This document shows, in pieces, positions 1,063 to 56,351 of a DNA stretch of 64,000 nt. Made by a program: the position numbers and the translations under genes. This stretch comes from Patescibacteria group bacterium (GTDB taxonomy: Bacteria; Patescibacteriota; Minisyncoccia; CAIUEV01; JAHKAQ01): assembly GCA_034716235.1 (NCBI GenBank), contig JAYEHH010000032.1, positions 370-64,369 of the forward strand, given 5' to 3'. The notes beneath the pieces are model-generated. The model saw nothing but the letters and a program-made list of their open reading frames with translations. It searched no databases and was not told the origin of the DNA. Each line of letters begins with the position of its first letter. Position 1 is the first letter of the stretch.

Positions 1063-1225
1063 GGTCATTCCCGTCCTGCTTGTCACCCCCGCCCCGTATC
1101 AAGTACGGGATAAACTCCAGCGGGAATCCCGAGCAAATTTAGAAGAAACTATTTTGGCAAAGTTTTGTCTAGACGTACCGGGATTCCCGTTTTCCTGCCT
1201 ACCGGCAGGCAGGCACGGGAATGAC
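1063..1225 (+). repeat. GC-rich MITE-like repeat, copy 1 (terminal inverted repeats gtcattcccgt / acgggaatgac)
   Basis: ~163 bp GC-rich block in an AT-rich spacer. Its ends are inverted repeats (ggtcattcccgtc ... ggcacgggaatgac). It is ~85% identical by eye over ~140 nt to an inverted copy at 41646-41789. ORF-track entries 1061..1279(+) and 41643..41861(-) are translations of the two copies (shared PAPYQVRDKLQR.S.ANLEET). Confidence 0.65.
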
Positions 1226-1234
1226 AGGGAAAAA

Positions 1235-1358
1235 GGCTGGCTGGCTTGTCTCGCCGAAGGCGGATCACCCTTTGGGTGAGATAATTAGCAATGGACAATT
1301 GATAATGGACAGTGGACAATTGATAATGCCAGCCAGAGGCTGGTCACCCTTTGGGTGA
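1235..1358. repeat. mosaic repeat module (GC-rich ggctggctggcttgtctcgccgaaggcggatcaccctttgggtga, AT-rich gacaattgataatg words, second tcaccctttgggtga copy)
   Basis: tcaccctttgggtga is duplicated internally. The first part is the reverse complement of 46317-46361 (tcacccagagggtgatccgccttcggcgagacaagccagccagcc). The AT-rich words recur at ~46252-46300. Confidence 0.6.
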
Positions 1359-1368
1359 AAAATTTCAA

Positions 1369-21219: not shown

Positions 21220-21632
21220 TAAAGATTATAGATATTTTTTAAACTAAAAAAGCCCGCCTCACTATTTAAAAAAATAGATAAAGCGGACTTTTTTCAATTC
21301 TCTAAAGTAATATAATCTCCGTAAATTAGCTAAAAACAAATTAATTGCGGTAAACGATCTATTAGTAATGCTTGGCTGAACGTGTTACCACGCTTACACC
21401 TACATCCTATCAACCTCGTCATCTTCGAGGAGATCTAAGCCTAATCTTGGGTTGGGCTTCGCGCTTATATGCTTTCAGCGCTTATCCACATCCGACTATA
21501 GCTACCCAGCAATGCCCTTGGTAGGGACAACTGGTACACCAGAGGTCGATTCATCCCGGTCCTCTCGTACTAGGGATGAGATCCCTCAAGCTTTCTCGCG
21601 CCTATGGAAGATAGGGACCAACCTGTTTTACA

Positions 21633-21664
<32 letters not shown>

Positions 21665-21679
21665 TTGGCGAACAGCCAA

Positions 21680-21726
<47 letters not shown>

Positions 21727-22007
21727 AGTAGCGAACAGCCTCGTCTATATGAGCTATCGGAGGCTACCACTCTGTTATCCCCGGGGTAACTTTTATCTGC
21801 TGAGCTTCCGCGATCCTACGATCCACGGTCGGATCACTAAATCCCGCTTTCGCGACTGCGCGACCTATAAGTCTTGCAGTAAAGCCGGCATCTGCTTTTG
21901 CGCTATCAGTCCGATTTCCATCCGGACCTAGCCGACCTTTGTGAACGACTCCGTTACAATTTGGGAGTCGAGCGCCCCACTCAAACTACCCACCAGACAC
22001 TGTTCCC

Positions 22008-22091
22008 GAGCTGGTGTTTAGTTACCTCTGGTAAATTTCACTGTTTCACATTTAATCAAGAAATCCCCAAAACATAGCTAAACATCAGCTC
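22008..22091 (-). other. ~70-nt expansion of the 23S helix homologous to E. coli H79
   Basis: Between the conserved ctaac and gacagtgtctggtggg blocks E. coli has ~23 nt; here there are ~91 nt. The extra sequence is closed by the stem gagctggtgtttag / ctaaacatcagctc. Confidence 0.6.
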
Positions 22092-22363
22092 AAGGTTAGA
22101 ACTACACGATTCACAGGGTGGTATTTCACTGATGACTCCATCTATCCCAAAGGATAAATCTCAAAGTCTCCCACCTATACTGAGCAATAAATTGTATAGA
22201 TCAATGTCAAGCTGTAGTAAAGCTCCACGGGGTCTTTCCGTCTTTCCATAGGCAAACGGCATCTTTACCGCTACTGCAATTTCACCGGGTCCTTCGTTGA
22301 GACAGTCTCCAAGTCGTTACCCCATTCGTGCAGGTCTGAACTTACCAGACAAGGAAATTCGCT

Positions 22364-22716
22364 CTGTTTTGTTAATCTTTATGTCACCATAAAGCACGGA
22401 CTATATCTTTCCGCTAAATTTAAGTCAAAAAATTTAGGCGGATTCAGCGTTTAGTCTCTGAGGATTCTAAAAATCTTTTTTAGTCTTTCCTGCTGATTAT
22501 CTGGCACCTCGGATCTTTTCCGAGAATTACTGATAACTTTTTTACTTGGCATAGCTTTATAAAAATCTATGGAATAACTATACCATAGTAGTCTCAGATT
22601 TTCCAGATTTTCCAGCATATAGCTGAATGTTTTAGGACATCTTAATAATTTAAGATAGGCAGCGTTAATAATATAATTGTTCCAGTCCTTTTGGAATCTA
22701 AATATTAAATTCCAAA
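22364..22716 (-). ncRNA. group I intron in 23S domain IV (between ...CCUAAGGU and AGCGAAAUUCC...), no ORF
   Basis: The conserved exon sequence ctaaggt|agcgaaattcc is split by ~353 nt. The 5' exon ends in U and the insert ends in G (aaaacag|agcg). The insert contains the group I catalytic-core consensus cagagactaaacgctg ... ggaaagatatagtccg, comparable to Tetrahymena ACAGACUAAAUGUCGG ... AAGAUAUAGUCGG. No ORF over 60 aa is present, so there is no homing endonuclease. Confidence 0.85.
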
Positions 22717-22896
22717 ACCTTAGAACAATTATAGTTATTGCTGACGTTCACCGGGGCTTCAGAGATTGGCGTTAACCGCTCTCGTTAACCTTCCGGCACT
22801 GGTCAGGGGTCAGCCCCTATACATCCCCTTACGGGTTAGCAGGGACCTATGTTTTTGATAAACAGTCGCCCGGAGTCTTTAGCTGTGGCCGACGAA

Positions 22897-23229
22897 TGTA
22901 CTGAATGGTGAATCCGAACTAGATAATTATCTGGTTCGGATTGTATGTGGGTTATTAATATTTTATTATGCTTTCTAACAAAGCGTTGCTAGGGTGCATA
23001 AAACGGTGACAATCGTCCAAAGTAGAAAGCCTATTAAAGGCATCTCTGCTAGGCCAATTGCCGTGCTCATCATCTTCTTTGTTCTTCCTTTCATATTGAT
23101 CCTCCTCCTCTAATTTCAATTTAAAAAACATAATTTACCCACACTTACCTTTTTTATTTTTTCTCCTTTCCTAAATCCATTTAGATTTCTTGGATTTAGA
23201 TTTTAAAGTTCAATTCACCATTCAGTACA
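22897..23229 (-). other. ~330-nt stem-bounded insertion (IVS or expansion segment) replacing 23S helix 63
   Basis: It lies between the conserved cttcgggataaggc and ggccacagctaaagactccgggcgactgtttatcaaaaac blocks. A perfect 17-bp inverted repeat (tgtactgaatggtgaat 22897-22913 / attcaccattcagtaca 23213-23229), extended by gccgac/gtcggc, closes ~300 nt of AT-rich non-rRNA sequence. Confidence 0.75.
22975..23094 (-). CDS. 39-codon ORF for a small hydrophobic peptide inside the 23S insertion (MKGRTKKMMSTAIGLAEMPLIGFLLWTIVTVLCTLATLC)
   Basis: It is on the same strand as the rRNA. gaggaggagg lies 6 nt upstream of the ATG (complement of 23101-23110). The basic N-terminus is followed by a ~22-residue hydrophobic helix, and the stop is TAG at 22975-22977. 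It is too short for the ORF track. Coding status is unproven. Confidence 0.35.
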   Translation of the reverse strand: MKGRTKKMMSTAIGLAEMPLIGFLLWTIVTVLCTLATLC

Positions 23230-24453
23230 CTGTCGGCAGGCCTTATCCCGAAGTTACGGCCGCTATTTTGCCGAGTTCCTTAACGAAGGTTCTCCCGTTC
23301 ACCTTGGGCTACTCGCCCTACCCACCTGTGTTGGTTTAAGTACGGATTAAACCTAAATATTTTCACAAAGCTTTTCCAGGAAGTCTATTCGCTCGAATCT
23401 GTTCCACTTGCGTTTCACATTTTTCCGCACCTTTTAAAAAGATGAAGAAACGTCAAACCATTAAGACGCTCAAGTTAGCTGACTTCGCACTTTGCTACAA
23501 CTTAGATTTAAGTCAAGGAATATTAACCTTGTGCCCATCGACTACGCTTTTCAGCCTCGCCTTAGGACCGACTAACCCTGGGCTGATTATCATCGCCCAG
23601 GAAACCTCAGGTTTTTGGTGGAAAGGAATCTAACCTTTCTTGCGGTTACTCATACCAACATTCTCTCTTCCATTAGCTCCACTAAAACTCACATTTTAGC
23701 TTCACAGCGCATGGAATGTTCTCCTACCCCGCCATACTCTAAAAAGAATATGACAGCCATAGTTTCGGTACTATGTTTGAGCCCCATTATATCTTCGGCG
23801 CGGAACGACTAGACTAGTGAGCTGTTACGCACTCTTTAAAGGAATGGCTGCTTCTAAGCCAACCTTCTAGCTGTTTAAGAAGTTCTACATCCTTTTCCAC
23901 TTAACATAGATTAGGGACCTTAACTAATGGTCTGGGCTGTTTCCCTTTCGTAAATGAAGCTTAGCCCCCACTTACTGACTCGTTAGACTTGTATATTGGA
24001 ATTCGGAGTTTGGTTGAGTGCCCTAGACAAAAGTCATGGATACTCATTCAGTGCTCTACCTCCAATACCAACTATCTAACGGCTATACCTAGATATATTT
24101 CGGAGAAAACCAGCTATCGCCGAGTTCGATTAGCATTTCACCTCTAACCACAGCTCATCCCAGCGTGTTGAACGGCGCTTGGGTGCGGACCTCCACCGCT
24201 TTTTAAGGCGGCTTCATCCTGGCCATGGCTAGCTCACTCGGCTTCGGGTCTGACCCTAACGACAGGGGGCGCCACTTAAGACTCGCTTTCGCTGCGGCTC
24301 TTCCGCCTAGACGGATTAACCAAGCCGTTAAAATCAACTCGTTGGTTCGTTCTGCAAAAAGCACGCGGTCACCGGCTCAAAAAAAACTTGAGCGGGCTCC
24401 CACTCGTTGTAAGCACACGGTTTCAGAAACTATTTCACTTCCCTTTCGGGATA

Positions 24454-24495
<42 letters not shown>

Positions 24496-25309
24496 AAAGT
24501 GTATTTAGTCTTACCGGGTTAGTACCGGCAAATTCACCTGGAATTTCTCTAGTTCCAGGCTACTCAAGATAAAATAACTCAGAGTGATTAATTGTTTTCG
24601 CCTACAGGACTTTTACCTTCTAAGGTAAGCCTTTCCAGGCATTTTTGGCTAACAACTAATGCTTTTTACTCTGCCAATACTAAAAGTTGTAAAAGCACAA
24701 TAAAATTATACTTTTACAATTTCAGTTCGGACGCTATTGAACTTATTACCCTCAGTAAAAACTGAGTTTGGACTTTTCCCCGTTCGCTCGCCGCTACTTA
24801 GGGAATAACTATTGTTGTTTTTTCCTTCGGCTACTAAGATGTTTCAATTCGCCGAGTATGCTTTTTACTCCTATGTATTCAGAGTAAAATTCTATTCAAA
24901 AATGAATAGAGGGTTTCCCCATTCGGAAATTCCCGGATCAAAGCTTGCTTGACAGCTCCCCGAGACTTTTCGCAGCCTGCTACGCCCTTCATCGCCACTT
25001 TGTACCAAGGCATCCACCATATGCTCTTATAACCACAATTTATTAGTGTTTTTAGCTAATTCACAAAGATTATTTGTAAATTAATTGCAATCACTTAAAT
25101 ACCATTTTGCCTAATAATTGTTTTTAACCACAATCTCCAAACAACTATTATTAAAATAAATTGTTAAAGTCCATTATGTGGCCTAAAAGGTAGTTTTTAA
25201 AAATAAAAACCGCTTTTCAAGCCGCTAATTCTTTAAAATAAATTAGACCCAAAAACTAGCCAAGGAACAGCTCTTAATAAATTCTCAATAAAATAATACT
25301 ATAAAAATT

Positions 25310-27308: not shown

Positions 27309-27353
27309 TTAAAAGTTAAGGTTAAGTTATAAAGTTCATAAATGATAAAAAAT

Positions 27354-27393
27354 AATTTTCAATTTTCAATTCACAATTTACAATTAAGGAATA
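27354..27393 (-). repeat. 40-nt AT-rich word module tattccttaattgNaaattgtgaattgaaaattgaaaatt upstream of atpD
   Basis: Its reverse complement matches 56306-56345 at 39/40 positions, in the same orientation relative to the downstream gene (atpD here, valS there). Confidence 0.7.
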
Positions 27394-27403
27394 TCTTTTT
27401 TAC

Positions 27404-27489
27404 GGTCATTCCCGCGAAGGCGGGAATCCCGAACAAATTGAGAAAGATTTAATTTTGTTTGTAGAGACGGGTTTCAAACCCATCTCTAC
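27404..27489 (-). repeat. GC-rich hairpin modules in the atpG-atpD spacer
   Basis: ggtcattcccgcgaaggcgggaatcccgaacaaatt belongs to the same family as 1063-1140. A second hairpin, gtagagacgggtttcaaacccatctctac (11-bp stem), overlaps the atpG stop codon at 27486-27488. Confidence 0.6.
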
Positions 27490-38341: not shown

Positions 38342-38515
38342 AGTTTTTTTGATTTAAACTTAAAATTAAAATTGAATTCCATTTTTATACTATTACAATA
38401 AAAATTTATTTACAAATAAAATAACAACTTTCATTCCCGCTTTTTTAAATTAGGGTTACCTTCTTTGTAAAAATCCTCTAAACTTATTAGAAAGATTGTC
38501 GAATATGACTTAAGA

Positions 38516-38665
38516 GACCCGCCTAAACTAGCAGGGATTCTGAGCAAATTTAAAAGACTCGAACATAATTGGTCATTCCCGTCTCCGCGGGAATGACATA
38601 TCTTAAGGTTTTTTCTAGATATACCAAGATTCCTGTCGAAATTTATCTTATACTTGATGTGGGGA
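38516..38665. repeat. degenerate, rearranged copy of the GC-rich mosaic repeat family
   Basis: It contains agcagggattctgagcaaatttaaaaga (cf. agcgggaatcccgagcaaatttagaaga at ~1119), the hairpin ggtcattcccgtctccgcgggaatgac (38571-38597), ttctagatataccaagattcc (cf. gtctagacgtaccgggattcc) and atttatcttatacttgatgtgggg (reverse complement of ccccgtatcaagtacgggataaa). Confidence 0.55.
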
Positions 38666-41582: not shown

Positions 41583-41625
41583 AGTTTTTGATTATTATGG
41601 TACAGTAGAAATGAGTTCATAAAGT

Positions 41626-41648
41626 GACTAGCTACTAAGTAGCTAGTC
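41626..41648 (+). terminator. palindrome gactagctact-a-agtagctagtc downstream of uvrA (possible terminator hairpin; no T-run)
   Basis: An 11-nt perfect inverted repeat lies 44 nt after the uvrA stop and abuts the MITE-like repeat. Confidence 0.25.
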
Positions 41649-41842
41649 ATTCCCGTGCCTGTCTGCCGTGAGGTAGAAAGGCAGGAATCCCGGTACGTCT
41701 AGACAATTCCTTGCCAAGTTAGTTTCTTCTAAATTTGCTTGGGACCCCCGCTGGAGTTTATCCCGTACTTGATACGGGGCGGGAATGACAGGGGAAAAAG
41801 CTGGTTGGAGTTTTACCCAGTAGATGTGGGACGGGAATGACC
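41646..41842 (-). repeat. GC-rich MITE-like repeat, copy 2 (inverted relative to copy 1, with ~50-nt extra segment)
   Basis: The reverse complement of 41646-41789 aligns with 1080-1225 (…cccgccccgtatcaagtacgggataaactccagcggg…gtctagacgtaccgggattcc…ggcacgggaatgac). An additional outer terminus, ggtcattcccgtc, lies at 41842. Confidence 0.65.
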
Positions 41843-41894
41843 ATAAACTAGTTACAATCAATGCCTTTTAAAAACAAAAAATAATTAATTAACC

Positions 41895-46238: not shown

Positions 46239-46443
46239 AGTTGAAAAGTTTAGATAATTGATAATTGACAATGGATAATTGATAATTAATGAATAATGAA
46301 TATCTTAAATAATTTTTCACCCAGAGGGTGATCCGCCTTCGGCGAGACAAGCCAGCCAGCCTCGCCGAGTCTAGGCGGGCCTCTGGCTGGCAATTAAGGA
46401 ATACTTTATAAACTTTACGAACCTTCTAACTTAACCATGAAGG
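46239..46443. repeat. mosaic repeat block at the left island flank (cataaagtt words, gataattga words, GC-rich core 46317-46391, ctttataaactttacgaacc words)
   Basis: The GC-rich core tcacccagagggtgatccgccttcggcgagacaagccagccagcc is the reverse complement of 1235-1279. The word arrays match those at 1280-1330, 45040-45157 and 56137-56160. Confidence 0.65.
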
Positions 46444-46516
46444 CTTTATTAAATGGGTGGGAAGTGGTTTAATAAAAAGAGATAGAGAATAAGAATTATA
46501 TAATTAATTACTTATA
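46444..46516 (+). repeat. island direct repeat, full unit A (73 nt)
   Basis: ctttattaaatgggtgggaagtggtttaataaaaagagatagagaataagaattatataattaattacttata is ~80% identical by eye to 55963-56037. It ends 9 nt before the ATG at 46526. Confidence 0.75.
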
Positions 46517-46525
46517 TTTAAAATT

Positions 46526-48343
46526 ATGCCAAATTATTTCGTCAATCAAAGAAATATTAGTGCGTTACTTCAAAACATTAAGGACGAAGATATTGTAATC
46601 CCAGAAATTCAGAGACCTTTTGTTTGGGAGAGTAAAAAAGTTCGTAATCTTATGGACTCATTGTATCAGGAATTTCCAATAGGTTATATTATTACATGGA
46701 AAAATCCAAATATAAGACTAAAAAATGGAAGAATGAGCGAGGGAAAACAAGTTATAATAGATGGACAACAAAGAATTACCGCTTTAATGGCTGCGATCTT
46801 GGGACGAGAAATTATAGACAAAGAGTATCAAAAAAAGAGGATTCGGATTTCCTTTAATCCATTGAAAGAAAAGTTTGAAACATTAACTCCTGTTATTGAA
46901 AAAAATAGTGAATGGATAAGCGATATTTCAGAATTTTTTAAAACTAGAAATAATATTTTTAATTTTACTGCTAATTTTTGTAAAAAAAATAATTTTACCG
47001 AAAAACAAAAAATCAAGACTCAGCAAAGTCTAACAAAATTACTAAACATGGAGGATAAGTTTATTGGAATTATTGAGCTTGATGCAAATTTAGATATTGA
47101 TGATGTAACGGAAATATTTGTTAGAATTAATGATGCTGGGACTCCCCTTTCACAAGCAGATTTTGCAATGAGTAAAATTGCCTCATACGAACCAACATCA
47201 GACCATTTGTTTGGAGTGAATTTAAGAAAGTCTATTGATTATTTTGCTCATCTATCTCAAACACCACATTTTCTTGAAGATATTGGAAGAAACGATAAAG
47301 AGTTTAGCCGAACAGAATATTTGCTAAAAATGAAATGGGCCGGGAAGGAATTGGATAATATATATAATCCAAACTATAAGGATATTTTAAGAGTAAGTTT
47401 CATTAAGGAATTTAATAGAGGGAAAATTAGCGATCTTGTGAAGCTTTTATCTGGACAAAATTTTAAAACAAGAAATTATGATCAAAAAATACAAGAGAAA
47501 TCATTCTTGGCTTTAAAAAATGGAGTCCTTGACTTTATAAATGAAAATCATTTTAAGAAATTCCTTATTATTTTACAATCAGCTGGAATTATTGATTCAA
47601 AACTTATTAATTCACAGAGCGTTCTAAATTTTGCCTATATTGTCTATTTAAAACTTAGAAAAGATGGAATGGCAAATAATTTAATTGGGAAATATACAAA
47701 AAAATGGCTTGTTCTTTCAATTTTGACTGAAAGATATTCAGCCTCACCAGAATCTACGATGGATAAGGATATTAAAGATATTAATAAATATGGAATTAAA
47801 AAAGTTATTGCAAAGATTGAAGAGGCGGACATGTCATCAACTTATTGGAATATTGGACTTGTACAAAATTTAAACAGGGCGATAATTTCAAGCCCATTTT
47901 TAAGCCTCTTTTTTATAGCACAGATATGCTCTAAGGATAAAGCTTTATTCTCCGAATCGGTTTTAATCGATCAACTCGTTAGCATAAAAGGAGACGTCCA
48001 TCATATTTTCCCCAAAAATTATCTTCAAAAAGCAGGGTTTGGAATAAGTAAATATAATCAAATTGCAAATTTTGTTTATTTACAACAAGAAGTAAATATA
48101 ACAATAGGAGATAAACCACCAGGACAATATTTTAGCCGAGCATTGAATCAATGTGATAATAAAACTTTGGATAGTGGAAGTATTGGAGAAATTACAGACA
48201 AGAAAAAATTGATAAAAAATTTAGAAATAAATTCTATCCCAACTGATATTTTTGAAATGGATATTACTAATTATGATGAATTTTTAGAAAAAAGACGGAA
48301 ATTAATGGCAAAGAAAATTGAAAAGTTTTATAAAAGTTTATAG
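46526..48343 (+). CDS. GmrSD-type modification-dependent (type IV) restriction enzyme, DUF262 + DUF1524
   Basis: 605 aa. The N-terminal DUF262 has IPEIQRPFVW, EFPIGYII and IIDGQQRITAL. The C-terminal His-Me/HNH-like DUF1524 has GDVHHIFPKNYL...NFVYLQQEVNITIGDK. Confidence 0.8.
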   Translation: MPNYFVNQRNISALLQNIKDEDIVIPEIQRPFVWESKKVRNLMDSLYQEFPIGYIITWKNPNIRLKNGRMSEGKQVIIDGQQRITALMAAILGREIIDKEYQKKRIRISFNPLKEKFETLTPVIEKNSEWISDISEFFKTRNNIFNFTANFCKKNNFTEKQKIKTQQSLTKLLNMEDKFIGIIELDANLDIDDVTEIFVRINDAGTPLSQADFAMSKIASYEPTSDHLFGVNLRKSIDYFAHLSQTPHFLEDIGRNDKEFSRTEYLLKMKWAGKELDNIYNPNYKDILRVSFIKEFNRGKISDLVKLLSGQNFKTRNYDQKIQEKSFLALKNGVLDFINENHFKKFLIILQSAGIIDSKLINSQSVLNFAYIVYLKLRKDGMANNLIGKYTKKWLVLSILTERYSASPESTMDKDIKDINKYGIKKVIAKIEEADMSSTYWNIGLVQNLNRAIISSPFLSLFFIAQICSKDKALFSESVLIDQLVSIKGDVHHIFPKNYLQKAGFGISKYNQIANFVYLQQEVNITIGDKPPGQYFSRALNQCDNKTLDSGSIGEITDKKKLIKNLEINSIPTDIFEMDITNYDEFLEKRRKLMAKKIEKFYKSL

Positions 48344-48375
48344 TAATAATTTTCTAATCAGAGAGCAGAAAGCTC

Positions 48376-48777
48376 TTACTCCTTATCAGGCAATCTATCA
48401 TCTTTTTTTCTTTGATAATAAGTATTCTTATTTAAACATCTGTTTATAATATTTTCCATGTGCCAATAAGTGTAATTGCCATATCTAAAATAAATCTGTT
48501 TTGTTTTGTAAAAATAATCCTCGTATCCTGACTGGTCAATGTAATTAGCAAGCTCTAAGTATAATTTGTTATCAACTTTTTCTTGGACAATATATTCATG
48601 GGGCCATGTTTTAGCATAAGTTTTTGCAGGCGTCCAATTAGAATTTTTAATAAATAATTTTAAATTATTGGGGAGTAGTACTCTATCAAACATCGCCTTT
48701 ATTTTTTTACTATGAAGAAATATTAAAACCTTTTTGATTGTAGCTATAGTATTGTTGATTACTTTAGTTTCATCCAT
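48376..48777 (-). CDS. hypothetical protein (WTPAKTY..WPHEYIV motif)
   Basis: 133-aa ORF convergent with the GmrSD gene. It is rich in aromatic residues (YFYKTKQIYFRYGNYTYWHM). No family could be named. Confidence 0.45.
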   Translation of the reverse strand: MDETKVINNTIATIKKVLIFLHSKKIKAMFDRVLLPNNLKLFIKNSNWTPAKTYAKTWPHEYIVQEKVDNKLYLELANYIDQSGYEDYFYKTKQIYFRYGNYTYWHMENIINRCLNKNTYYQRKKDDRLPDKE

Positions 48778-48927
48778 GCTGAATCTAAAGTGGATTCCAT
48801 AAGTTGCATATTCTTTTAATCAAAAATACATTATTTATTTCAATAAGTATAGTAAGTTATAATTTAAAATAGCTGAACAGAATTCTTAATTTATAATCTA
48901 GAATTTGTAATCTAAAATCTCTCAAGA

Positions 48928-48965
48928 CTTGATTAAATGGGTAGAAAGTGGCTTAATGGGGAGGA
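48928..48965 (+). repeat. island repeat, left half-unit B (38 nt), possible promoter TTGATT-17nt-CTTAAT
   Basis: cttgattaaatgggtagaaagtggcttaatggggagg is identical to the first 37-38 nt of unit C (55963-56000). It lies 131 nt upstream of the McrB start. Confidence 0.7.
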
Positions 48966-49095
48966 GAATTGCATGGTTAATTGGTTATCAATGAAAATGC
49001 TATAAAGTTTTTATTAAGATTATAATTAAGAGAATAATTCAGGTAGGGTTTTTTGCAAAAATTAATGTGCTTTTTAATTATTTTATATAAATTCA

Positions 49096-52014
49096 ATGAG
49101 AGTTAATATCAAGGAAATCAGGAGAATAATTAAATCTGATGTTATTAAGCCTAGAATTGAAGAATATTTACAGAAAAGAAAAAGTGGAGACGAGCAGCAA
49201 TGGAACGAGGAATATAAATGGGATCCAAAAATATTGCCTGCAACACATAAGGAATTTATCAAGGAAAGAGACATTCTTAAAAAAATTGAAATTCTTCAAA
49301 AAAATAATCCAAACGAAGGATCCTTTGTGAGTTATATGGACTTGGACGATCTCAATAAATTTGCTAAGGAAAAAACAAAGCAAGCCACAAAGTTGATGGA
49401 AAACTTATTGAATGGAAAAAAGAATATTGCTAAACGCATTGATTATTTTAGGGATGAGACGAAAAAAGTGGATGAAAAAATTAAATTAGGAACACCCTTA
49501 TTTGGTTACATTATGGCGGTATTCAATTCCAGTAAATATCCAACTTATAAAAATTCAACCTTTATGGCTCTCAAAAAGCTCATTGGAAAAAGACAAGAAT
49601 GGAGTTCTATGAGTGTTGGCGAGAAATATCAAACATTTACTGACCTGTGCCATGAAATGGGCAAATTGCTGAAGCCAGAACTTGAAACTGTAAATATCAG
49701 AGGTATTGAGGTCAAGCCAGGAAGGACTGCTCTGGATGGTCAAGACTTTTTCTATATTCTTGAAGATCGTTATAATAGAGAGAGATATTTCCCCGAACTT
49801 GTTAAATTTCTTGAACAAGCCAAGGCAAGCAATCTTACAACAAAGCAATACCGAAAGGATTATATGAATTGTAAAGTGAGGATAAGTTTTGGAAAAGTAA
49901 GCTCTGCACAAACACCCTGGATTAGTTTTTTATCCGGTGACAATAAATTACAGAAGGGAATTTATCCAGTCTTTCTTTTTTATAAAAGTATAAATAAATT
50001 ATTTCTAGCATATGGTATAAGTGAAATAAGTGAACCCGAACAAATTTGGAACATTGTTGGAAAAGAAACAATTGAAGATTATTTTATTGAAAATTTCAAC
50101 TCGGAGCCAGAGAGATATGGCAGTTCTTATGTTTATAAAGTATACGATGTGAAAAACATTGATAATTTAAATCAAGAACAAATGGAAAATGACTTGAAAA
50201 ACATAATTAATGAATATAAAAAACAACTTGAAGAAACTCCAAAAATTCAATACTGGACAATTTCTCCGGGGGAAGATGCAAAGCACTGGGAGGAGTTCTA
50301 TCAAAAAGGGATCATTGGAGTCGGCTGGGATAAAACAAAAGATCTCTTACAATATAAAAATAAAAAAGAAATTCAAAAGGTTGCGAAAAACTTATTTGGA
50401 TTAAAAACTAATGCCAGCAATACTGCCCAAGCTTGTTTGGATTTTTCTAGAACAATGAGAATTGGGGATATTTTAATTGTCAAAAAGGGAATTCATGAAT
50501 TGGTCGGCTATGGAAAGGTAACTTCAGATTATATTTATGATGCAAGGAGGAAGACATATAAACACATACGAAATGTGATGTGGATTAAAAAGGGAAATTG
50601 GAAGATAGATAAAGAGATTATTCATCCTGCATTAAAAACTTTAACTAACATAACTCCGTATGAAGGTTATGCCCAAGAATTATTGGGCATAATGGACGAA
50701 AGTAATATTGATGGAAAAAATTACTGGTGGATTAATGCAAATCCAAAAATTTGGAATTTAACAGAGGCGGAAGTCGGTTCCAAACAAATATATACAAGCC
50801 ATAATGAGGCCAAGAATCCCAGAAGAATTTATAGTTATTTTAAAGAGGTTAAGCCGGGCGACATTATGTTTGGATATATAACAAGTCCTGACAAACAAAT
50901 TACTTCAATATGCAAAATAACCAAAGGGTTATATGAGAACAAAGAGGGGGAAGTGATTGAATTTGAAAAAACTGAGACTTTACAAAATCCAATTTTGTGG
51001 AATGAATTGAAAAATGAAGAAAGTTTGAAAAATTGCGAACCAATTAAGAACAATCAAGGAAGTTTGTTTAAAATAAGCAAAGAAGAATATGAAACCATTA
51101 GATATTTGATTGATGAGAAAAATATTTTCACGAAAGAAAAAATTGAAAAATATATAAAAAAGGATGCTCTAGACAAATTATTTATTTCAGAAAATGAATT
51201 TGATAATATAGCCCAAAATATTGAAAGAAACAAAAATATCATTCTGCAAGGCCCTCCCGGAGTTGGCAAAACTTTTCTTGCAAAAAGGTTGGCTTATTAT
51301 TTGATTGGATACAAAGACGTAAACAAGGTACAATCTATCCAATTTCATCAATCATATTCATATGAAGATTTCATGCAAGGTTACAGGCCCAATGAAAAAG
51401 GAAAATTTGATCTTGTTAATGGAATATTTTTCAGATTTTGTCAGAAAGCTAAAAATGATCCAAACAATAAGTATTTCTTCTTGATAGATGAAATAAATAG
51501 AGGAAATCTGAGCAAAATTTTTGGTGAATTAATGATGCTTATTGAAAAAGATAAACGGGGTAAAGATTTTGCTATACCTTTAACATATTCCCAAGATGAC
51601 AGAGAAACATTTTATGTGCCAGAAAATGTTCATTTGATTGGGACTATGAACACAGCTGATAAATCACTTGCGATGGTAGACTATGCTTTGCGAAGAAGAT
51701 TTAATTTTATTTTTCTGAAACCAAAATTTAATAACAGCTTTAGTTCATTCCTAGAAAATATGGGAGTTAAAAAGATTATTATTAAAGCGATAGTTGAAAA
51801 AATAAGCAAACTAAATGAGATGATAATTAATGATGATAATAATCTTGGAAAAGGATATCAAATTGGTCATAGTTTTTTCTGTCCTCAGAGAAAAAGTAAA
51901 TATGACGAAGAATGGTTTAAGAATATTGTCAAATACGAAATTGAACCATTGCTCGAGGAGTATTGGTTTGATAGTGAGAAAAAATTTAATGAAGCGAAGA
52001 ATTTATTAAACTGA
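49096..52014 (+). CDS. mcrB: McrB-family AAA+ GTPase with extended N-terminal sensor region (DUF3578/MrcB_N-like + PUA-like + EVE-like)
   Basis: 972 aa. The AAA+ core spans aa ~700-900 (ILQGPPGVGKTF, FFLIDEINRGNLSKIFGELMMLIE, LIGTMNTADKSLAMVDYALRRRF). aa ~255-310 (KVRISFGKVSSAQTPWISFLSGDNKLQKGIYPVFLFY) resembles DUF3578. aa ~384-505 (YWTISPGE..W..F...GIIGVGW...MRIGDILIVKKG..LVGYGKV) and aa ~541-675 (YWWINANPKIW...VKPGDIMFGYITSP...QGSLFKISKEEY) look like EVE/PUA-type barrels. Confidence 0.8.
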   Translation: MRVNIKEIRRIIKSDVIKPRIEEYLQKRKSGDEQQWNEEYKWDPKILPATHKEFIKERDILKKIEILQKNNPNEGSFVSYMDLDDLNKFAKEKTKQATKLMENLLNGKKNIAKRIDYFRDETKKVDEKIKLGTPLFGYIMAVFNSSKYPTYKNSTFMALKKLIGKRQEWSSMSVGEKYQTFTDLCHEMGKLLKPELETVNIRGIEVKPGRTALDGQDFFYILEDRYNRERYFPELVKFLEQAKASNLTTKQYRKDYMNCKVRISFGKVSSAQTPWISFLSGDNKLQKGIYPVFLFYKSINKLFLAYGISEISEPEQIWNIVGKETIEDYFIENFNSEPERYGSSYVYKVYDVKNIDNLNQEQMENDLKNIINEYKKQLEETPKIQYWTISPGEDAKHWEEFYQKGIIGVGWDKTKDLLQYKNKKEIQKVAKNLFGLKTNASNTAQACLDFSRTMRIGDILIVKKGIHELVGYGKVTSDYIYDARRKTYKHIRNVMWIKKGNWKIDKEIIHPALKTLTNITPYEGYAQELLGIMDESNIDGKNYWWINANPKIWNLTEAEVGSKQIYTSHNEAKNPRRIYSYFKEVKPGDIMFGYITSPDKQITSICKITKGLYENKEGEVIEFEKTETLQNPILWNELKNEESLKNCEPIKNNQGSLFKISKEEYETIRYLIDEKNIFTKEKIEKYIKKDALDKLFISENEFDNIAQNIERNKNIILQGPPGVGKTFLAKRLAYYLIGYKDVNKVQSIQFHQSYSYEDFMQGYRPNEKGKFDLVNGIFFRFCQKAKNDPNNKYFFLIDEINRGNLSKIFGELMMLIEKDKRGKDFAIPLTYSQDDRETFYVPENVHLIGTMNTADKSLAMVDYALRRRFNFIFLKPKFNNSFSSFLENMGVKKIIIKAIVEKISKLNEMIINDDNNLGKGYQIGHSFFCPQRKSKYDEEWFKNIVKYEIEPLLEEYWFDSEKKFNEAKNLLN

Positions 52015-52019
52015 TTTTT

Positions 52020-53057
52020 ATGGAGATACCTATAATAAATATATATTACCTACTTTGTTATGCTTGGGATAAACTTGAAGAAAAAGATGTTGTTAACGTA
52101 AAAGAAGAAGATCACACTAAGTTACTTGATCTTTTTGCAAAGATATTAATTAACGGAATGAATCATCTAATCAGGAAAGGATTGGACAGAAATTACATTG
52201 ATATCAAAGAAGATTCAAAGAGAATTAAGGGAAAGATTAATTTCAATGAAACACTGAAAAGGAACTTGTTGGTACGATGTGAAATTAGTTGCGAATTCGA
52301 CGATTTTAGTTACAACATTCTTCACAACAGAATTATTAAAACAGTGATTGGAGGATTAGTTAGAAATGATGAGGTGGATCAGGAGCTGAGGGACGAATTG
52401 AATAAAATCTATCGATTATTGAAAGAGATTGATGAGATAAGGCTTTCCTCAAAAATATTTAATGCTGTAAAATTAAACAGAAATAATTACTTTTATGATT
52501 TTCTGATCAAGGTATGTAGGCTGATATATGAAAATTATTTAATCACGGAAGAAACGGGCAAGGGGAAATTTAGAGATTTTATAAGAGACGAAGTAAAAAT
52601 GAGAATGCTCTTCGAAGATTTTGTTAGGAATTTTTATAGAAAAGAACAAAACGAATTTTCTGTAACAAGGGAATTGATTGCATGGAATGTTAAGGCTGAG
52701 AATGATGAAGATATGAGTTATATGCCGAGAATGGAAACCGATATATCGCTAAAATCAAAAAGTAAAAAAATAATAGTTGATACAAAATATTATAAAGAGG
52801 CCATTAAGGGTCAATATAAGAATAAAGAAAAGTTAATATCCAATAATTTATATCAAATGTTTGCCTACATAAATAATATAGAAAACAAAGGAGGTCTAAA
52901 TAAAAAATGTACTGGAATATTACTTTACCCAACAGTTAAAAAAGATTTGGATTTAAAATATAAAATACCAAATCATAACTTACAAATTAAAACAATAAAT
53001 CTAAATCAAGAATGGAAAAAAATTCATAAAGACTTATTAAGTGTAATTATGACTTGA
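52020..53057 (+). CDS. mcrC: McrC-family nuclease subunit
   Basis: 345 aa, starting 5 nt after mcrB. The N-terminal YLLCYAWDKLEE and the C-terminal PD-(D/E)xK-like METDISL...IIVDTKYYK are typical of McrC. Confidence 0.8.
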   Translation: MEIPIINIYYLLCYAWDKLEEKDVVNVKEEDHTKLLDLFAKILINGMNHLIRKGLDRNYIDIKEDSKRIKGKINFNETLKRNLLVRCEISCEFDDFSYNILHNRIIKTVIGGLVRNDEVDQELRDELNKIYRLLKEIDEIRLSSKIFNAVKLNRNNYFYDFLIKVCRLIYENYLITEETGKGKFRDFIRDEVKMRMLFEDFVRNFYRKEQNEFSVTRELIAWNVKAENDEDMSYMPRMETDISLKSKSKKIIVDTKYYKEAIKGQYKNKEKLISNNLYQMFAYINNIENKGGLNKKCTGILLYPTVKKDLDLKYKIPNHNLQIKTINLNQEWKKIHKDLLSVIMT

Positions 53058-53131
53058 AAATCCCTATGTTTATAAATTTTAAAAACAATTTAGAATAGAA
53101 GATAATCATCTATTTATATTTATATAACCCA

Positions 53132-54349
53132 ATGCAACAATTTTCTCATTCAAAATTACAAACCTATGAAAGATGTCCCCTGCAATATAAGCTCCAATAC
53201 CTCACCAATCTAAAGCCGGAGCAGGAAGAGACAATAGAAGCCTTTGTGGGTAGCCGGGTCCATGAGACTCTGGAACTTCTTTATCGTGATCTACTGCGAA
53301 CAAAACTAAATTCTTTAGCTGATCTTTTAAAGTTCTATGATAAAATTTGGAGAGTAAACTGGAGCAATGACATAGTTATCAATAATAAAGAATTTAAAAA
53401 GAAACATTACTTTGATCTTGGAAAAAAATGTATTAAAAATTATTATGAAAAATATAGCCCTTTTGATCAGGATCAAACAATTGGAATTGAGAAGAGGATT
53501 AATTTACAATGGGGAGACATTGGAATAGTGGGATACATTGACCGTTTAGCTAGAGACAGCCAGGGTATTTATTCTATCCATGATTATAAAACGGGTGCCA
53601 TCATGGAACAGAAGTACGCAGATCAAGATCGTCAGCTAGCCTTGTATTCAATTGCCGTTAAGGAAAACTTTAGAGAGGCCAAAGAGGTAAGGTTAATTTG
53701 GCATTTTGTAGCTTATGGCGAAGATGTTATCTCGAAACGGACAAATAAGGAATTGGCTAAGCTAAAAAATGAAATGCTGTCCCTTATTGAAGAAATTAAT
53801 CTTGCAGAAAAAGAAGATAATTTTCCAGCCAAAGAAACTAAATGTGAATGGTGCGGATATTGGCAGTATTGCCCAAAGAAAAAGCATTTATTCAAAACAG
53901 AAAAACTTCCAAAAAATAAATACCTACAAGATAGTGGAGTAAAACTAGCAAAAAAGTATATTAATTTATCACAACAAAGAACTGTCATAAACAAACGAGC
54001 TAAAACTAAGGGGGAAATAATTAAGCAAGAAATGCTAAAGATTCAAGAAGCTATCCTAAAATATACCCAGAAACATAAAATAGATGTCTTGGCGGGAGAA
54101 AAAATGCTTGTAGCTATTAATAAGAGTAAGAACTATACCTTCCCTACAAAAACTACTGACATTGAAAAATACACTGAATTGGAAAATTTATTGAAAAAAA
54201 GTAAGTACTGGAACGGTGTATCTTCCGTCAATGCCCAAAAAGTTAGTCAATTATTGGAAGATGATGGGATTGACAGTAGATTAAAGCAGAAAATTATTGC
54301 CCTTGCTCCACTTGAAGAATCTACTAACTTATCAATCAGAAAAAAGTAA
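53132..54349 (+). CDS. Cas4/AddB-like PD-(D/E)XK nuclease with Fe-S Cys cluster and ~150-aa C-terminal extension
   Basis: 405 aa. Motifs: FSHSKLQTYERCPLQYKLQY (Cys15), GYIDRLARD (D137), IHDYKTG (D151-x-K153), QLALY (QxxxY) and CEWCGYWQYC (C238, C241, C247). Confidence 0.75.
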   Translation: MQQFSHSKLQTYERCPLQYKLQYLTNLKPEQEETIEAFVGSRVHETLELLYRDLLRTKLNSLADLLKFYDKIWRVNWSNDIVINNKEFKKKHYFDLGKKCIKNYYEKYSPFDQDQTIGIEKRINLQWGDIGIVGYIDRLARDSQGIYSIHDYKTGAIMEQKYADQDRQLALYSIAVKENFREAKEVRLIWHFVAYGEDVISKRTNKELAKLKNEMLSLIEEINLAEKEDNFPAKETKCEWCGYWQYCPKKKHLFKTEKLPKNKYLQDSGVKLAKKYINLSQQRTVINKRAKTKGEIIKQEMLKIQEAILKYTQKHKIDVLAGEKMLVAINKSKNYTFPTKTTDIEKYTELENLLKKSKYWNGVSSVNAQKVSQLLEDDGIDSRLKQKIIALAPLEESTNLSIRKK

Positions 54350-54910: not shown

Positions 54911-54950
54911 AAATAATTAGGGTTATACTCCCCTGCTGCATTCTTTCTTA

Positions 54951-54977
54951 AAAGAATTACGTAATTAATTACTTACC
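54951..54977 (+). repeat. island repeat, right half-unit D (27 nt) with palindrome AATTACGTAATT
   Basis: aaagaattacgtaattaattacttacc is identical to 56011-56037. It lies 55 nt upstream of the ATG at 55032. Confidence 0.7.
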
Positions 54978-55031
54978 AGTAACCCCACTTCCAAAAACAA
55001 TTCTAAAATAACATAGATTAATAGAATCTGA

Positions 55032-55962: not shown

Positions 55963-56037
55963 CTTGATTAAATGGGTAGAAAGTGGCTTAATGGGGAGGG
56001 AAATAGAGAAAAAGAATTACGTAATTAATTACTTACC
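55963..56037 (+). repeat. island direct repeat, full unit C (75 nt)
   Basis: The unit is cttgattaaatgggtagaaagtggcttaatggggagggaaatagagaaaaagaattacgtaattaattacttacc. See units A, B and D. Confidence 0.75.
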
Positions 56038-56136
56038 ACCACTAAAACAATAATCTATTCAAAATAATAATTCAAAATAATAATTCAAAATACCTACAGG
56101 ACTGGAAAAATATAGTTGCTAATGCTAATCTAAAAC

Positions 56137-56346
56137 TAAGTTCGTAAAGTATAACTTCTAACGTTTCGTCTAGGCGTCCCGGGATTTCCGTCCGGCATGC
56201 GCCAGATTACATTTTCCTGCCTACCGGCAGGCAGGAAGCTTTAGCGAAGACTGGTCATCCCCTGGATGAAAAATTGAAAATTAGAAATTGAAAATTATAA
56301 TAAAGTATTCCTTAATTGAAAATTGTGAATTGAAAATTGAAAATTC
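56137..56346. repeat. mosaic repeat block at the right island flank (cgtaaagt words, GC-rich core 56168-56268, AT-rich aattgaaaatt words)
   Basis: gtctaggcgtcccgggatttcc...ttttcctgcctaccggcaggcagg matches 1167-1215. The segment 56306-56345 matches the atpD-upstream module at 39/40 positions. Confidence 0.65.
56274..56301 (+). promoter_or_regulatory. putative valS promoter TTGAAA-16nt-TATAAT inside the repeat block
   Basis: The sequence reads aaaTTGAAAattagaaattgaaaatTATAATaaag, ~50 nt upstream of the ATG at 56352. Confidence 0.35.
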
Positions 56347-56351
56347 TCTTT

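Follow-up and report, generated by a model that had tools for sequence, protein, structure and literature searches.

A dRS3/NTS-type hairpin repeat as the probable basis of GC-rich mosaic blocks in a Patescibacteria genome

The stretch of DNA analysed here, the 64,000-nucleotide window on contig JAYEHH010000032.1 of a Patescibacteria group bacterium (GCA_034716235.1), carries in its intergenic spacers a set of short GC-rich blocks which share modules with one another and fold into strong hairpins. We think it somewhat better than an even chance that these blocks derive, as intact, nested or decayed copies, from a hairpin repeat of the dRS3/Neisseria Transformation Sequence (NTS) type, and that this hairpin is one that an Ssn nuclease binds and cuts as single-stranded DNA. 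The blocks make up a non-autonomous, intergenic family resembling the NIME and REPIN elements, and not a classical miniature inverted-repeat transposable element (MITE). The units of this family obey a common grammar, are distributed over several phyla and are insertion-polymorphic among relatives of the host, with no linked gene in view.

The NTS consensus, CGTCATTCCCGCGMAVGCGGGAATCYRG, is 28 nt long and encompasses the dRS3 sequence ATTCCC-N8-GGGAAT (PMC11893778). It is bound by SsnA, a 94-aa GIY-YIG protein which cuts just upstream of it, exclusively in single-stranded DNA, and the action of which lowers transformation by NTS-bearing DNA; cleavage depends most on the three bases before the palindrome and binding on the C after it, and NTS-like 'Ssn-related motifs' (SRM) flank ssn homologues in many bacteria (PMC11893778). 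We assign the blocks to the dRS3/NTS/SRM class because of direct sequence identity, conservation of the functional flanks and covariation in the stem. GC-rich repeats of a Patescibacteria genome are thereby tied to a class with a defined biochemical partner, Ssn, and the label 'MITE-like', under which an initial annotation had described them, gives way to testable predictions.

The hairpin unit and its copies in the window

The unit shared by the blocks is an oriented hairpin, 5'-GTC, ATTCCCG(C/T), loop, (G/A)CGGGAAT, C-3', in which GTC precedes an 8-bp stem whose first base is A (ATTCCCGC) and C follows the complementary stem (GCGGGAAT). Both flanks are present in five of the six window units (1082-1131, 1225-1178, 27404-27431, 41646-41693 and 41789-41740), the exception being a symmetric hairpin at 38572, which has no 3' C. 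The hairpin at 27404-27431 agrees with the NTS consensus at 26 of 28 positions, an identity far beyond chance, the mismatches falling on the first base and on position 27 (a single mismatch was allowed in PMC11893778). The dRS3 core occurs exactly twice in the window (27408-27427 and 38575-38594) against 0.00 times in 100 shuffles, and the arm sequence GTCATTCCCG has eight exact occurrences, or nine with one mismatch against 1.63 in shuffles. The copies are listed below.

1063-1228 (+): composite element A; 145 nt at 88% identity to B; fold -38.7 kcal/mol, z -5.9
1063-1076 (+): orphan outer left arm of A, GGTCATTCCCGTCC
1082-1131 (+): long-loop unit of A, GTCAcCCCCG, 27-nt loop CCCGTATCAAGTACGGGATAAACTCCA, GCGGGAATCCCG; followed by a 46-nt spacer
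1225-1178 (-): inverted unit of A, GTCATTCCCGT, loop GCCTGCCTGCCGGTAGGCAGGAAA, ACGGGAATCCCGG
1229-1362 (+): second GC-rich module family, abutting A; fold z -4.8; 98% identical over 46 nt to the reverse complement of 46317-46362
27404-27431 (+): copy C, single short-loop hairpin GGTCATTCCCGCGAAGGCGGGAATCCCG between atpG and atpD; fold -11.6 kcal/mol, z -4.3
38516-38665 (+): copy D, doublet, decayed and shifted towards A+T, in the spacer of the divergent hpf-uvrA pair
38524-38547: remnant of the left unit of D
38572-38597: intact perfect hairpin GTCATTCCCGTCTCCGCGGGAATGAC nested in D, 26 nt, with exact dRS3 core; fold -11.5 kcal/mol, z -5.9
41646-41843 (-): composite element B, its core inverted relative to A, between uvrA and a conserved 123-aa open reading frame (ORF)
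41646-41693 (+) and 41789-41740 (-): units of B, the latter with long loop and followed by an extra 41-nt module
46311-46392 (+): copy of the second family downstream of tsaD, TCACCCAGAGGGTGA, CCGCCTTCGGCG, GCCAGCCAGCC...CTGGCTGGC; fold z -5.1
56168-56268 (+): copy F, degenerate right-hand part of A, GTCTAGGCGTCCCGGGATTTCCGT ... TTTTCCTGCCTACCGGCAGGCAGG ... AAGCTTTAGCGAAG; terminal arm lost

The similarities between these sites exceed chance by far. Positions 1081-1225 match the reverse complement of 41646-41790 over 145 nt at 88% identity (blastn E 2.7e-46), which bears out the inverted pair of GC-rich elements proposed in the initial annotation, its estimate of ~85% being slightly low. The sub-modules which it saw shuffled into other spacers recur at the sites it gave: positions 1190-1213 are identical to 56212-56235 (24/24), 1120-1144 match 27420-27444 at 92%, and in the second module family 1234-1279 match the reverse complement of 46317-46362 (46 nt, 98%, E 1.6e-18) and 1337-1364 match 46311-46338. 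Its description of the blocks as GC-rich, strongly self-complementary and placed in intergenic spacers including the atp operon likewise holds. Their G+C content is 52-58% compared with ~34% for the window, their folds as single-stranded DNA beat those of shuffled sequences (z -5.9, -3.1, -4.3, -5.9, -4.8 and -5.1), and every copy in the window is intergenic, one lying between atpG and atpD.

The mosaic appearance stems from further small GC-rich hairpins in the loops of the units, the 145-165-nt elements being inverted pairs of units together with a spacer. The 27-nt loop of the unit at 1082-1131 contains the hairpin CCCGTA-TCAAG-TACGGG, and the 24-nt loop of the inverted unit at 1225-1178 the hairpin CCTGCC...GGCAGG. 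When the five copies A, B, C, D and F are aligned, C shares the flanks and spacer of A and B (the homologous spacer on its 3' side being 27432-27460), with a 4-nt loop, GAAG, in place of the 27-nt loop. Aligned to the long-loop unit in inverted orientation, the right half of D (38628-38664) agrees at 27 of 37 positions, a score reached by 0 of 500 shuffles. Element B, which lies downstream of the promoter-like sequence TATGGTACAGT, has a 34-nt extra segment beyond the core and then an outer arm GTCATTCCCG (- strand, 41832-41841). In the second module family, A+T-rich 7-nt tandem repeats lie between GGCTGGCTGGC/GCCAGCCAG arms in inverted orientation and a pair of TCACCCTTTGGGTGA hairpins; the family has TCACCCWWWGGGTGA hairpins, recurs at 46311-46392 and, in other loci, was found only in Logan contigs of the same organism (L001 and L002).

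At both A and B the core is followed by the module CGGGAATGAC-AGGGRAAAAAG-CTGG, the orientation of which does not change although the cores are inverted (1216-1244 matches 41780-41808 directly), as if the core had been flipped or inserted between arms. Such an arrangement would be compatible with the hairpins being target sites of a recombinase and the mosaic having been built by repeated recombination at them; dRS3 is a target of this kind in Neisseria (PMC1797815). There is no recombinase or prophage in the window, nothing recombinase-like recurs near the copies in other genomes, and viral contigs searched with a 28-mer of the long-loop unit and with a probe for the second module family gave 0 matches, so that we hold this explanation to be very improbable, the least probable of those considered.

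The outer stems of A and B show a further peculiarity. In A the left arm has become GTCAccCCCG while the right arm is unchanged (1082-1091 / 1120-1128), and in B the left arm is unchanged while the right arm reads GCGGGggTC (41780-41789 / 41741-41751); each element thus holds one half of a would-be double compensatory change and neither stem is fully paired. Gene conversion between copies and hairpin-templated repair are both possible sources of such half-changes. Abutting B is a 25-nt near-perfect palindrome, GTGACTAGCTACTAAGTAGCTAGTCA (96%; 41625-41649), the 3' arm of which provides the GTC of the first unit, and which might be an older hairpin in or beside which B inserted.

Nearly every GC-rich block is adjoined by A+T-rich 7-nt tandem repeats (AATTGAA / AATTGAT / GGACAAT), found at 27348-27400, 56299-56351, 1283-1327, 46241-46300 and 56267-56345. 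A 53-nt stretch (89% complementary) immediately precedes both atpD and the gene at 56337 for a class I aminoacyl-tRNA synthetase, without a change of orientation, and a short module, CAATTAAGGAATA(C/T)TTTAT, occurs at 27381, at 46391 and, inverted, at 56300. This context could be a promoter or leader element.

The long-loop unit in other genomes

The long-loop unit of ~50 nt, GTCATTCCCG-CCCCGTATCAAGTACGGGATAAACTCCA-GCGGGAATCCAG, is not confined to the window. An exact 33-mer taken from its loop and right arm picked 36 contigs of species-representative genomes, with up to 9 per genome and with titles naming Syntrophaceae, Thermodesulfobacteriota/Deltaproteobacteria, Nitrospirota, Patescibacteria (two genomes), Actinomycetota and others; in all 36 contigs it is preceded by a GTCATTCCCG-like sequence and followed by AATCCAG. 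Genomes in which many long-loop units occur include WTBG01 (GLR311), JAVVFD01 (TamC13-38) and CBDTTR01. A 28-mer from the same unit matches at least 120 metagenome contigs. Together these 36 genome and 120 metagenome contigs constitute the 156 related loci considered below (890 kb, a mean of ~6 kb of DNA per locus), which range from 34 to 56% G+C.

The exact-match searches hold the inner hairpin of the unit fixed, and it is the sequence outside the fixed pattern that is informative. Among 109 distinct long-loop copies the GTC and the C are 91-95% conserved, and pairing of the outer stem, with the 27-nt loop between its arms, is kept in 90-99% of cases. The compensatory changes for which the initial annotation proposed to look are present in this stem, as double TA>CG changes at two pairs, in 8 and 3 distinct sequences, respectively. 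Single C-A and T-G changes are about equally frequent, so that there is no wobble bias of the RNA type. In 79 of 138 long-loop copies an inverted partner hairpin stands 36-138 nt downstream, most commonly CTGGATTCCGGGTCAAGCCCGGAATGAC, with covarying variants GGG/CCC, GGA/TCC and TGCCGGA/TCCGGCA.

When the grammar is relaxed to GTCA followed by a perfect 8-bp stem, the related loci contain 268 hairpins, among which there are many different, covarying stem sequences, and a C follows the palindrome in 249. Their loop lengths are bimodal, with 112 hairpins at 4-5 nt and a peak at ~27 nt; the latter is inflated by the selection of loci (97 copies), and it is the other long-loop families, at 28, 29, 33 and 44 nt, on which the search had no influence. 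The canonical short-loop form is also present: a hairpin TGTCATTCCCGCGCAGGCGGGAATCCAG agrees with the Neisseria consensus at 27 of 28 positions, and the NTS with at most two mismatches occurs eight times. Components of the window copies reappear elsewhere, the CCTGCCTACCGGCAGGCAGG hairpin of copy F in the unrelated loci L131, L093 and L062, and GAAGCTTTAGCGAAG in the Patescibacteria locus L015. Long open frames, though covering 78% of the bases, hold 8 of the 156 units.

Beyond the unit itself the flanking repeat context differs genome by genome, from which it follows that conservation lies in the unit, as the building block, and that each lineage has composites of its own. A more far-reaching proposition, to which we give a rather low probability, is that the ~50-nt unit is a self-contained, phylum-crossing hairpin which seeds lineage-specific composites, including those in a reduced Patescibacteria genome that may be without the cognate enzyme, and which spreads by a route not yet described. 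Were this so, a small GIY-YIG nuclease of single-stranded DNA might transpose it in trans, or it might be captured from imported DNA in the course of uptake, both being candidate routes, and in episymbionts dependent on DNA uptake the hairpin could mark or restrain incoming single-stranded DNA. If enzymes of the Ssn type do move hairpins, a new transposition chemistry would be at hand; if the present lineage is without the enzyme, one has to ask how it acquired the hairpins. Both the class of repeat and its wide distribution are already known (PMC11893778). In that paper and in the literature searched we found no description of the long-loop forms, of the near-identity of the 50-nt form across genomes whose titles name at least four phyla, of the unit as a seed of lineage-specific composites, or of its presence, nesting and turnover in a Patescibacteria genome, and a search for the same repeats in Patescibacteria or for follow-up studies on Ssn showed no relevant paper among those listed.

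Turnover among relatives and the competing explanations

The UvrA protein of the window is 100% identical to NCBI MEA3273500.1 (Patescibacteria group bacterium), the next relatives being named Candidatus Moranbacteria. Three relatives were compared: L040 (GCA_018399475.1) and L041 (a JGI metagenome contig), both with UvrA at 76%, and L039, with UvrA at 88%. L040 and L041 keep the gene order hpf-uvrA-orf123-clpB-tsaD and have no GC-rich block in either of the spacers that hold D and B in the window. The hpf-uvrA spacer measures 164 nt in L040 and 135 nt in L041 compared with 427 nt in the window, and the uvrA-orf123 spacer 147 and 146 nt compared with 312 nt, the conserved spacer ends aligning on either side of the insertions. 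At the 3' site of uvrA, L039 has a different GC-rich composite, GTCATTGCGAG...GAAGCAATCCC. These differences, together with the decayed state of D and the intact hairpin nested within it, show turnover by insertion, decay and re-insertion, and because of this turnover the elements, judged on these alignments, are not conserved functional parts of the neighbouring operons. An assembly artefact was considered and rejected, as independent Logan assemblies of three runs have the same genes and two of them part of the repeat.

L039 also has, upstream of uvrA, three tandem paralogous small ORFs, each followed by a terminator-like hairpin GCGGGAATGAAAGAACAACTTTCGGACCCGCTTTTTT, an arm of which resembles the repeat arm GCGGGAATGAC (sites 690-740, 1165-1215 and 1755-1810 of L039). 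Of a hairpin of this type the window retains just the 3' half, CTTTCATTCCCGCTTTTTT, at 38418-38445, left over from a gene array that has been lost.

Turnover bears directly on the view that the blocks are functional RNA or transcription signals selected in place, be it as terminators, mRNA-stabilising stem-loops or small RNAs, the initial annotation having taken them to be likely structured RNAs when transcribed. Effects on mRNA are known for both REP and Correia elements. The strong folds, the placement of blocks where genes end or begin, within the atp operon as well as in a 5' leader, and the effects on mRNA documented for Correia elements (PMC1797815) all fit such a role. It is opposed by the absence of the elements from the orthologous sites of close relatives, by the decay of one copy towards A+T, by the lack of strand bias in the wobble changes and by the occurrence of the unit beside unrelated genes in many phyla. 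Moreover, Rfam at the gathering score returned for the window only the 23S rRNA and a group I intron, matches with E up to 10 on 1000-1400 being noise, and a scan of 38-47 kb for terminators and promoters gave no enrichment, the hairpins being without T tails on the transcribed strand. The structured-RNA proposal has no positive evidence in its favour, and we regard the selected-signal view as improbable, slightly more so than the MITE considered next.

The insertion polymorphism lends some justice to the label 'MITE-like' as far as mobility is concerned. A classical MITE would be a deletion derivative of an insertion sequence (IS) with a DDE transposase, moved in trans via its terminal inverted repeats, and in accordance with this the 145-165-nt non-coding element is bounded by 10-nt perfect inverted ends, GTCATTCCCG/CGGGAATGAC, and is similar in size to the Correia elements of Neisseria. 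The terminal inverted repeats of the initial annotation do bound the repeats; they are in reality the arms of dRS3/NTS-type hairpins, which also stand alone, at 26-28 nt. The target-site duplications for which it suggested looking flank neither A (TTAAT / AGGGA) nor B (TTTAT / TAGCT) nor the nested hairpin (ATAATT / ATATCT). In addition, ~0.9 Mb around the 156 related copies yielded no parent IS with the same ends, the neighbours being housekeeping genes with no transposase among the recurrent families, and it is the internal hairpin unit that is conserved while the outer ends differ between genomes. A classical MITE therefore has little probability in our estimation.

Among the window ORFs there is no transposase, in agreement with the initial annotation, and specifically no Y1 transposase and no GIY-YIG protein. 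In the 36 genome loci, 147 ORFs lying no more than 2.6 kb from the unit were assigned to Pfam families, and the 25 most frequent of these all have housekeeping functions. Clustering of ORFs of at least 80 aa from all 156 loci yielded, among the 15 largest clusters (judged by reading the sequences, without annotation), no family resembling a mobile-element enzyme; one large cluster is a translation of the repeat, and the others resemble common cellular proteins, among them a response regulator and a membrane permease.

A further alternative is an origin of the REP/REPIN type, in which inverted palindrome doublets are copied via single-stranded DNA by a single-copy Y1 transposase (RAYT, IS200/IS605-like) encoded elsewhere in the genome. 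Much of what is observed is compatible with it, notably the inverted pairing of long-loop units (79 of 138 with a partner 36-138 nt away), the lack of target-site duplications, and the intergenic, non-autonomous, BIME-like mosaic character of the copies. Apart from the lack of a Y1 transposase in the window and of a recurrent mobile-element-like protein family near the 156 copies, two arguments count against it: the units match base for base a repeat which is bound and cut by another enzyme, Ssn (PMC11893778), and REPINs, the biology of which is treated in PMC3337134 and PMC3116915, are described as vertically inherited within lineages, whereas the long-loop unit is common to several phyla. 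We judge this origin unlikely, albeit the least unlikely of the four alternatives. All of these rank below the dRS3/NTS-type hairpin; each explains a part of the observations and is without its defining component.

For the favoured dRS3/NTS-type hairpin the mechanism would be as follows. The hairpin would form in single-stranded DNA, a small GIY-YIG nuclease (Ssn) would bind it and cut just upstream, and the repeats could possibly spread in an Ssn-dependent manner, as has been proposed for Neisseria. The operation of this mechanism in the present host, and any effects on neighbouring genes, are suggested by analogy with the biochemistry of the Neisseria and Wolbachia systems. A GIY-YIG consensus, verified against Pfam (PF01541, E 1.5e-20) and used as query, retrieved thousands of GIY-YIG proteins of ~95 aa, those with names coming from Deltaproteobacteria, Syntrophales, Nitrospirae, Ignavibacteria, Actinomycetota and others. 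On contigs whose GIY-YIG protein is named in the source records as from Syntrophales, Nitrospirae or Deltaproteobacteria, the small GIY-YIG genes have GTCATTCT...AGAATC hairpins on both sides, which reproduces the published association of Ssn with its motifs.

Several observations weigh against this reading. A profile built from 118 small GIY-YIG homologues, which recovers its positive controls, finds no member in the window (64 kb) and none in the 156 loci (890 kb). The same profile finds none in 2.3 kb beyond the end of the window (L162) or in the relatives, and a regular expression and phmmer with two GIY-YIG sequences, one of them checked against Pfam, find none in the window or the 156 loci. 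The spreading of its repeats by Ssn is a hypothesis even in PMC11893778. The published SRM pattern, HGTCWYN(0-2)YYVSBRHN(0-5)WNVSBRGN(0-2)RNCYNB, has 0 matches in the window (0.07 in shuffles); the long-loop units, with loops of 24-27 nt, lie beyond its loop range (at most ~5 nt), just one window copy is canonical in both its short loop and its orientation, the one at 38572 being symmetric, and the second module family (1229-1362 and 46311-46392) stands outside the GTC...C grammar and is not covered by the model. The hairpin at 27404 fails the pattern solely by the G before its GTC and matches once that base is changed, and in the related loci the pattern has 17 matches compared with 3.4 in shuffles. 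The hairpin tolerates, and commonly carries, structured loop inserts of 24-44 nt, a feature of which we saw no description in PMC11893778; the pattern cannot match these, and counts based on it miss such forms.

The window as a whole is an A+T-rich segment of a bacterial chromosome (~34% G+C) carrying genes for 23S rRNA, secA/secDF, hpf, uvrA, clpB, tsaD, several aminoacyl-tRNA synthetases and parAB besides the atp operon; a scan found no tRNA genes in it. The 23S rRNA gene (21341-25040, -) is 3.7 kb long, ~775 nt beyond the 2925-position model, an excess for which the 341-nt match to a group I intron at 22377-22717 (Rfam 64.8 bits) is by itself insufficient. Between ~38300 and 40000 gene orientation flips from - to + at the hpf-uvrA spacer, the site of copy D, and the cumulative GC skew is lowest at 39-40 kb, a pattern typical of replication origins; an origin in the 38.4-kb spacer is not borne out by the DnaA boxes, which form no cluster, and there is no dnaA nearby.

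A separate repeat family consists of CTTGATTAAATGGGTAGAAAGTGGCTTAATGGGGAGG followed by a palindromic TTACGTAATTAATTAC motif, with sites as follows.

46444-46485, 48928-48969 and 55963-56004: CTTGATTAAATGGGTAGAAAGTGGCTTAATGGGGAGG/TTACGTAATTAATTAC family
54950-54978, 56010-56038 and 931-966: the same family
10100-10135 of L041: the palindrome, in the 76% relative

The TTACGTAATTAATTAC palindrome may be a conserved protein-binding site, because it is also found downstream of tsaD in the 76% relative. This family brackets a modification-dependent restriction island of 26-33% G+C at 46526-54349, with genes for a GmrSD-like protein, a 972-aa McrB-like protein (MrcB_N, EVE, AAA_5), McrC and a PD-(D/E)XK nuclease; L041 has a different gene after tsaD.

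Comparison with known repeat classes

With the NTS/dRS3/SRM class the present units share the core palindrome ATTCCCGCG...CGCGGGAAT and the oriented flanks, GTC on the 5' side and C on the 3' side, and they are likewise hairpin-forming, intergenic, multi-copy and spread across phyla. They differ in that most copies here have 24-27-nt loops containing a second hairpin, in that there is no ssn gene in the window or near the 156 copies, and in the Patescibacteria host, a group the name of which was not found in the text of PMC11893778.

The REP/REPIN/BIME elements (PMC3116915, PMC3337134) also consist of short palindromic units, single or in inverted doublets with a spacer, and are non-autonomous, located between genes, arranged in mosaic clusters and devoid of target-site duplications. 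The units described here are unrelated in sequence to known REPs, and no RAYT was seen in the window, nor one recurring near the copies. Known REPs have a 5' tetranucleotide of the GTAG type, which the window units do not have. The Correia elements (CREE) are comparable as non-coding sequences of 100-160 nt with terminal inverted repeats, adjacent to genes and variable in presence between strains; the window elements differ from them in having no target-site duplication, in that no related transposase-bearing parent turned up in the ~0.9 Mb around the related copies, and in that their ends are an independent hairpin repeat.

In the NIMEs, dRS3 inverted repeats flank RS blocks of ~50-150 bp, which belong to many families and vary between strains (PMC1797815). 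Here, similarly, ATTCCC...GGGAAT arms surround 45-145-nt blocks of several families, modules are shuffled between sites, arrays differ between relatives and G+C content is higher at the arms. Arms of the NIME type at 1064-1073 / 1216-1225 and at 41646-41655 / 41780-41789 bound the 145-nt block, a match in architecture only, as the family is defined in Neisseria. The differences are that isolated units and doublets occur here as opposed to long arrays, that the internal blocks are in part hairpins inserted in loops, and that the host is unrelated to Neisseria. On the architecture of the sequence, the NIMEs are nevertheless the closest match to the mosaic as a whole.

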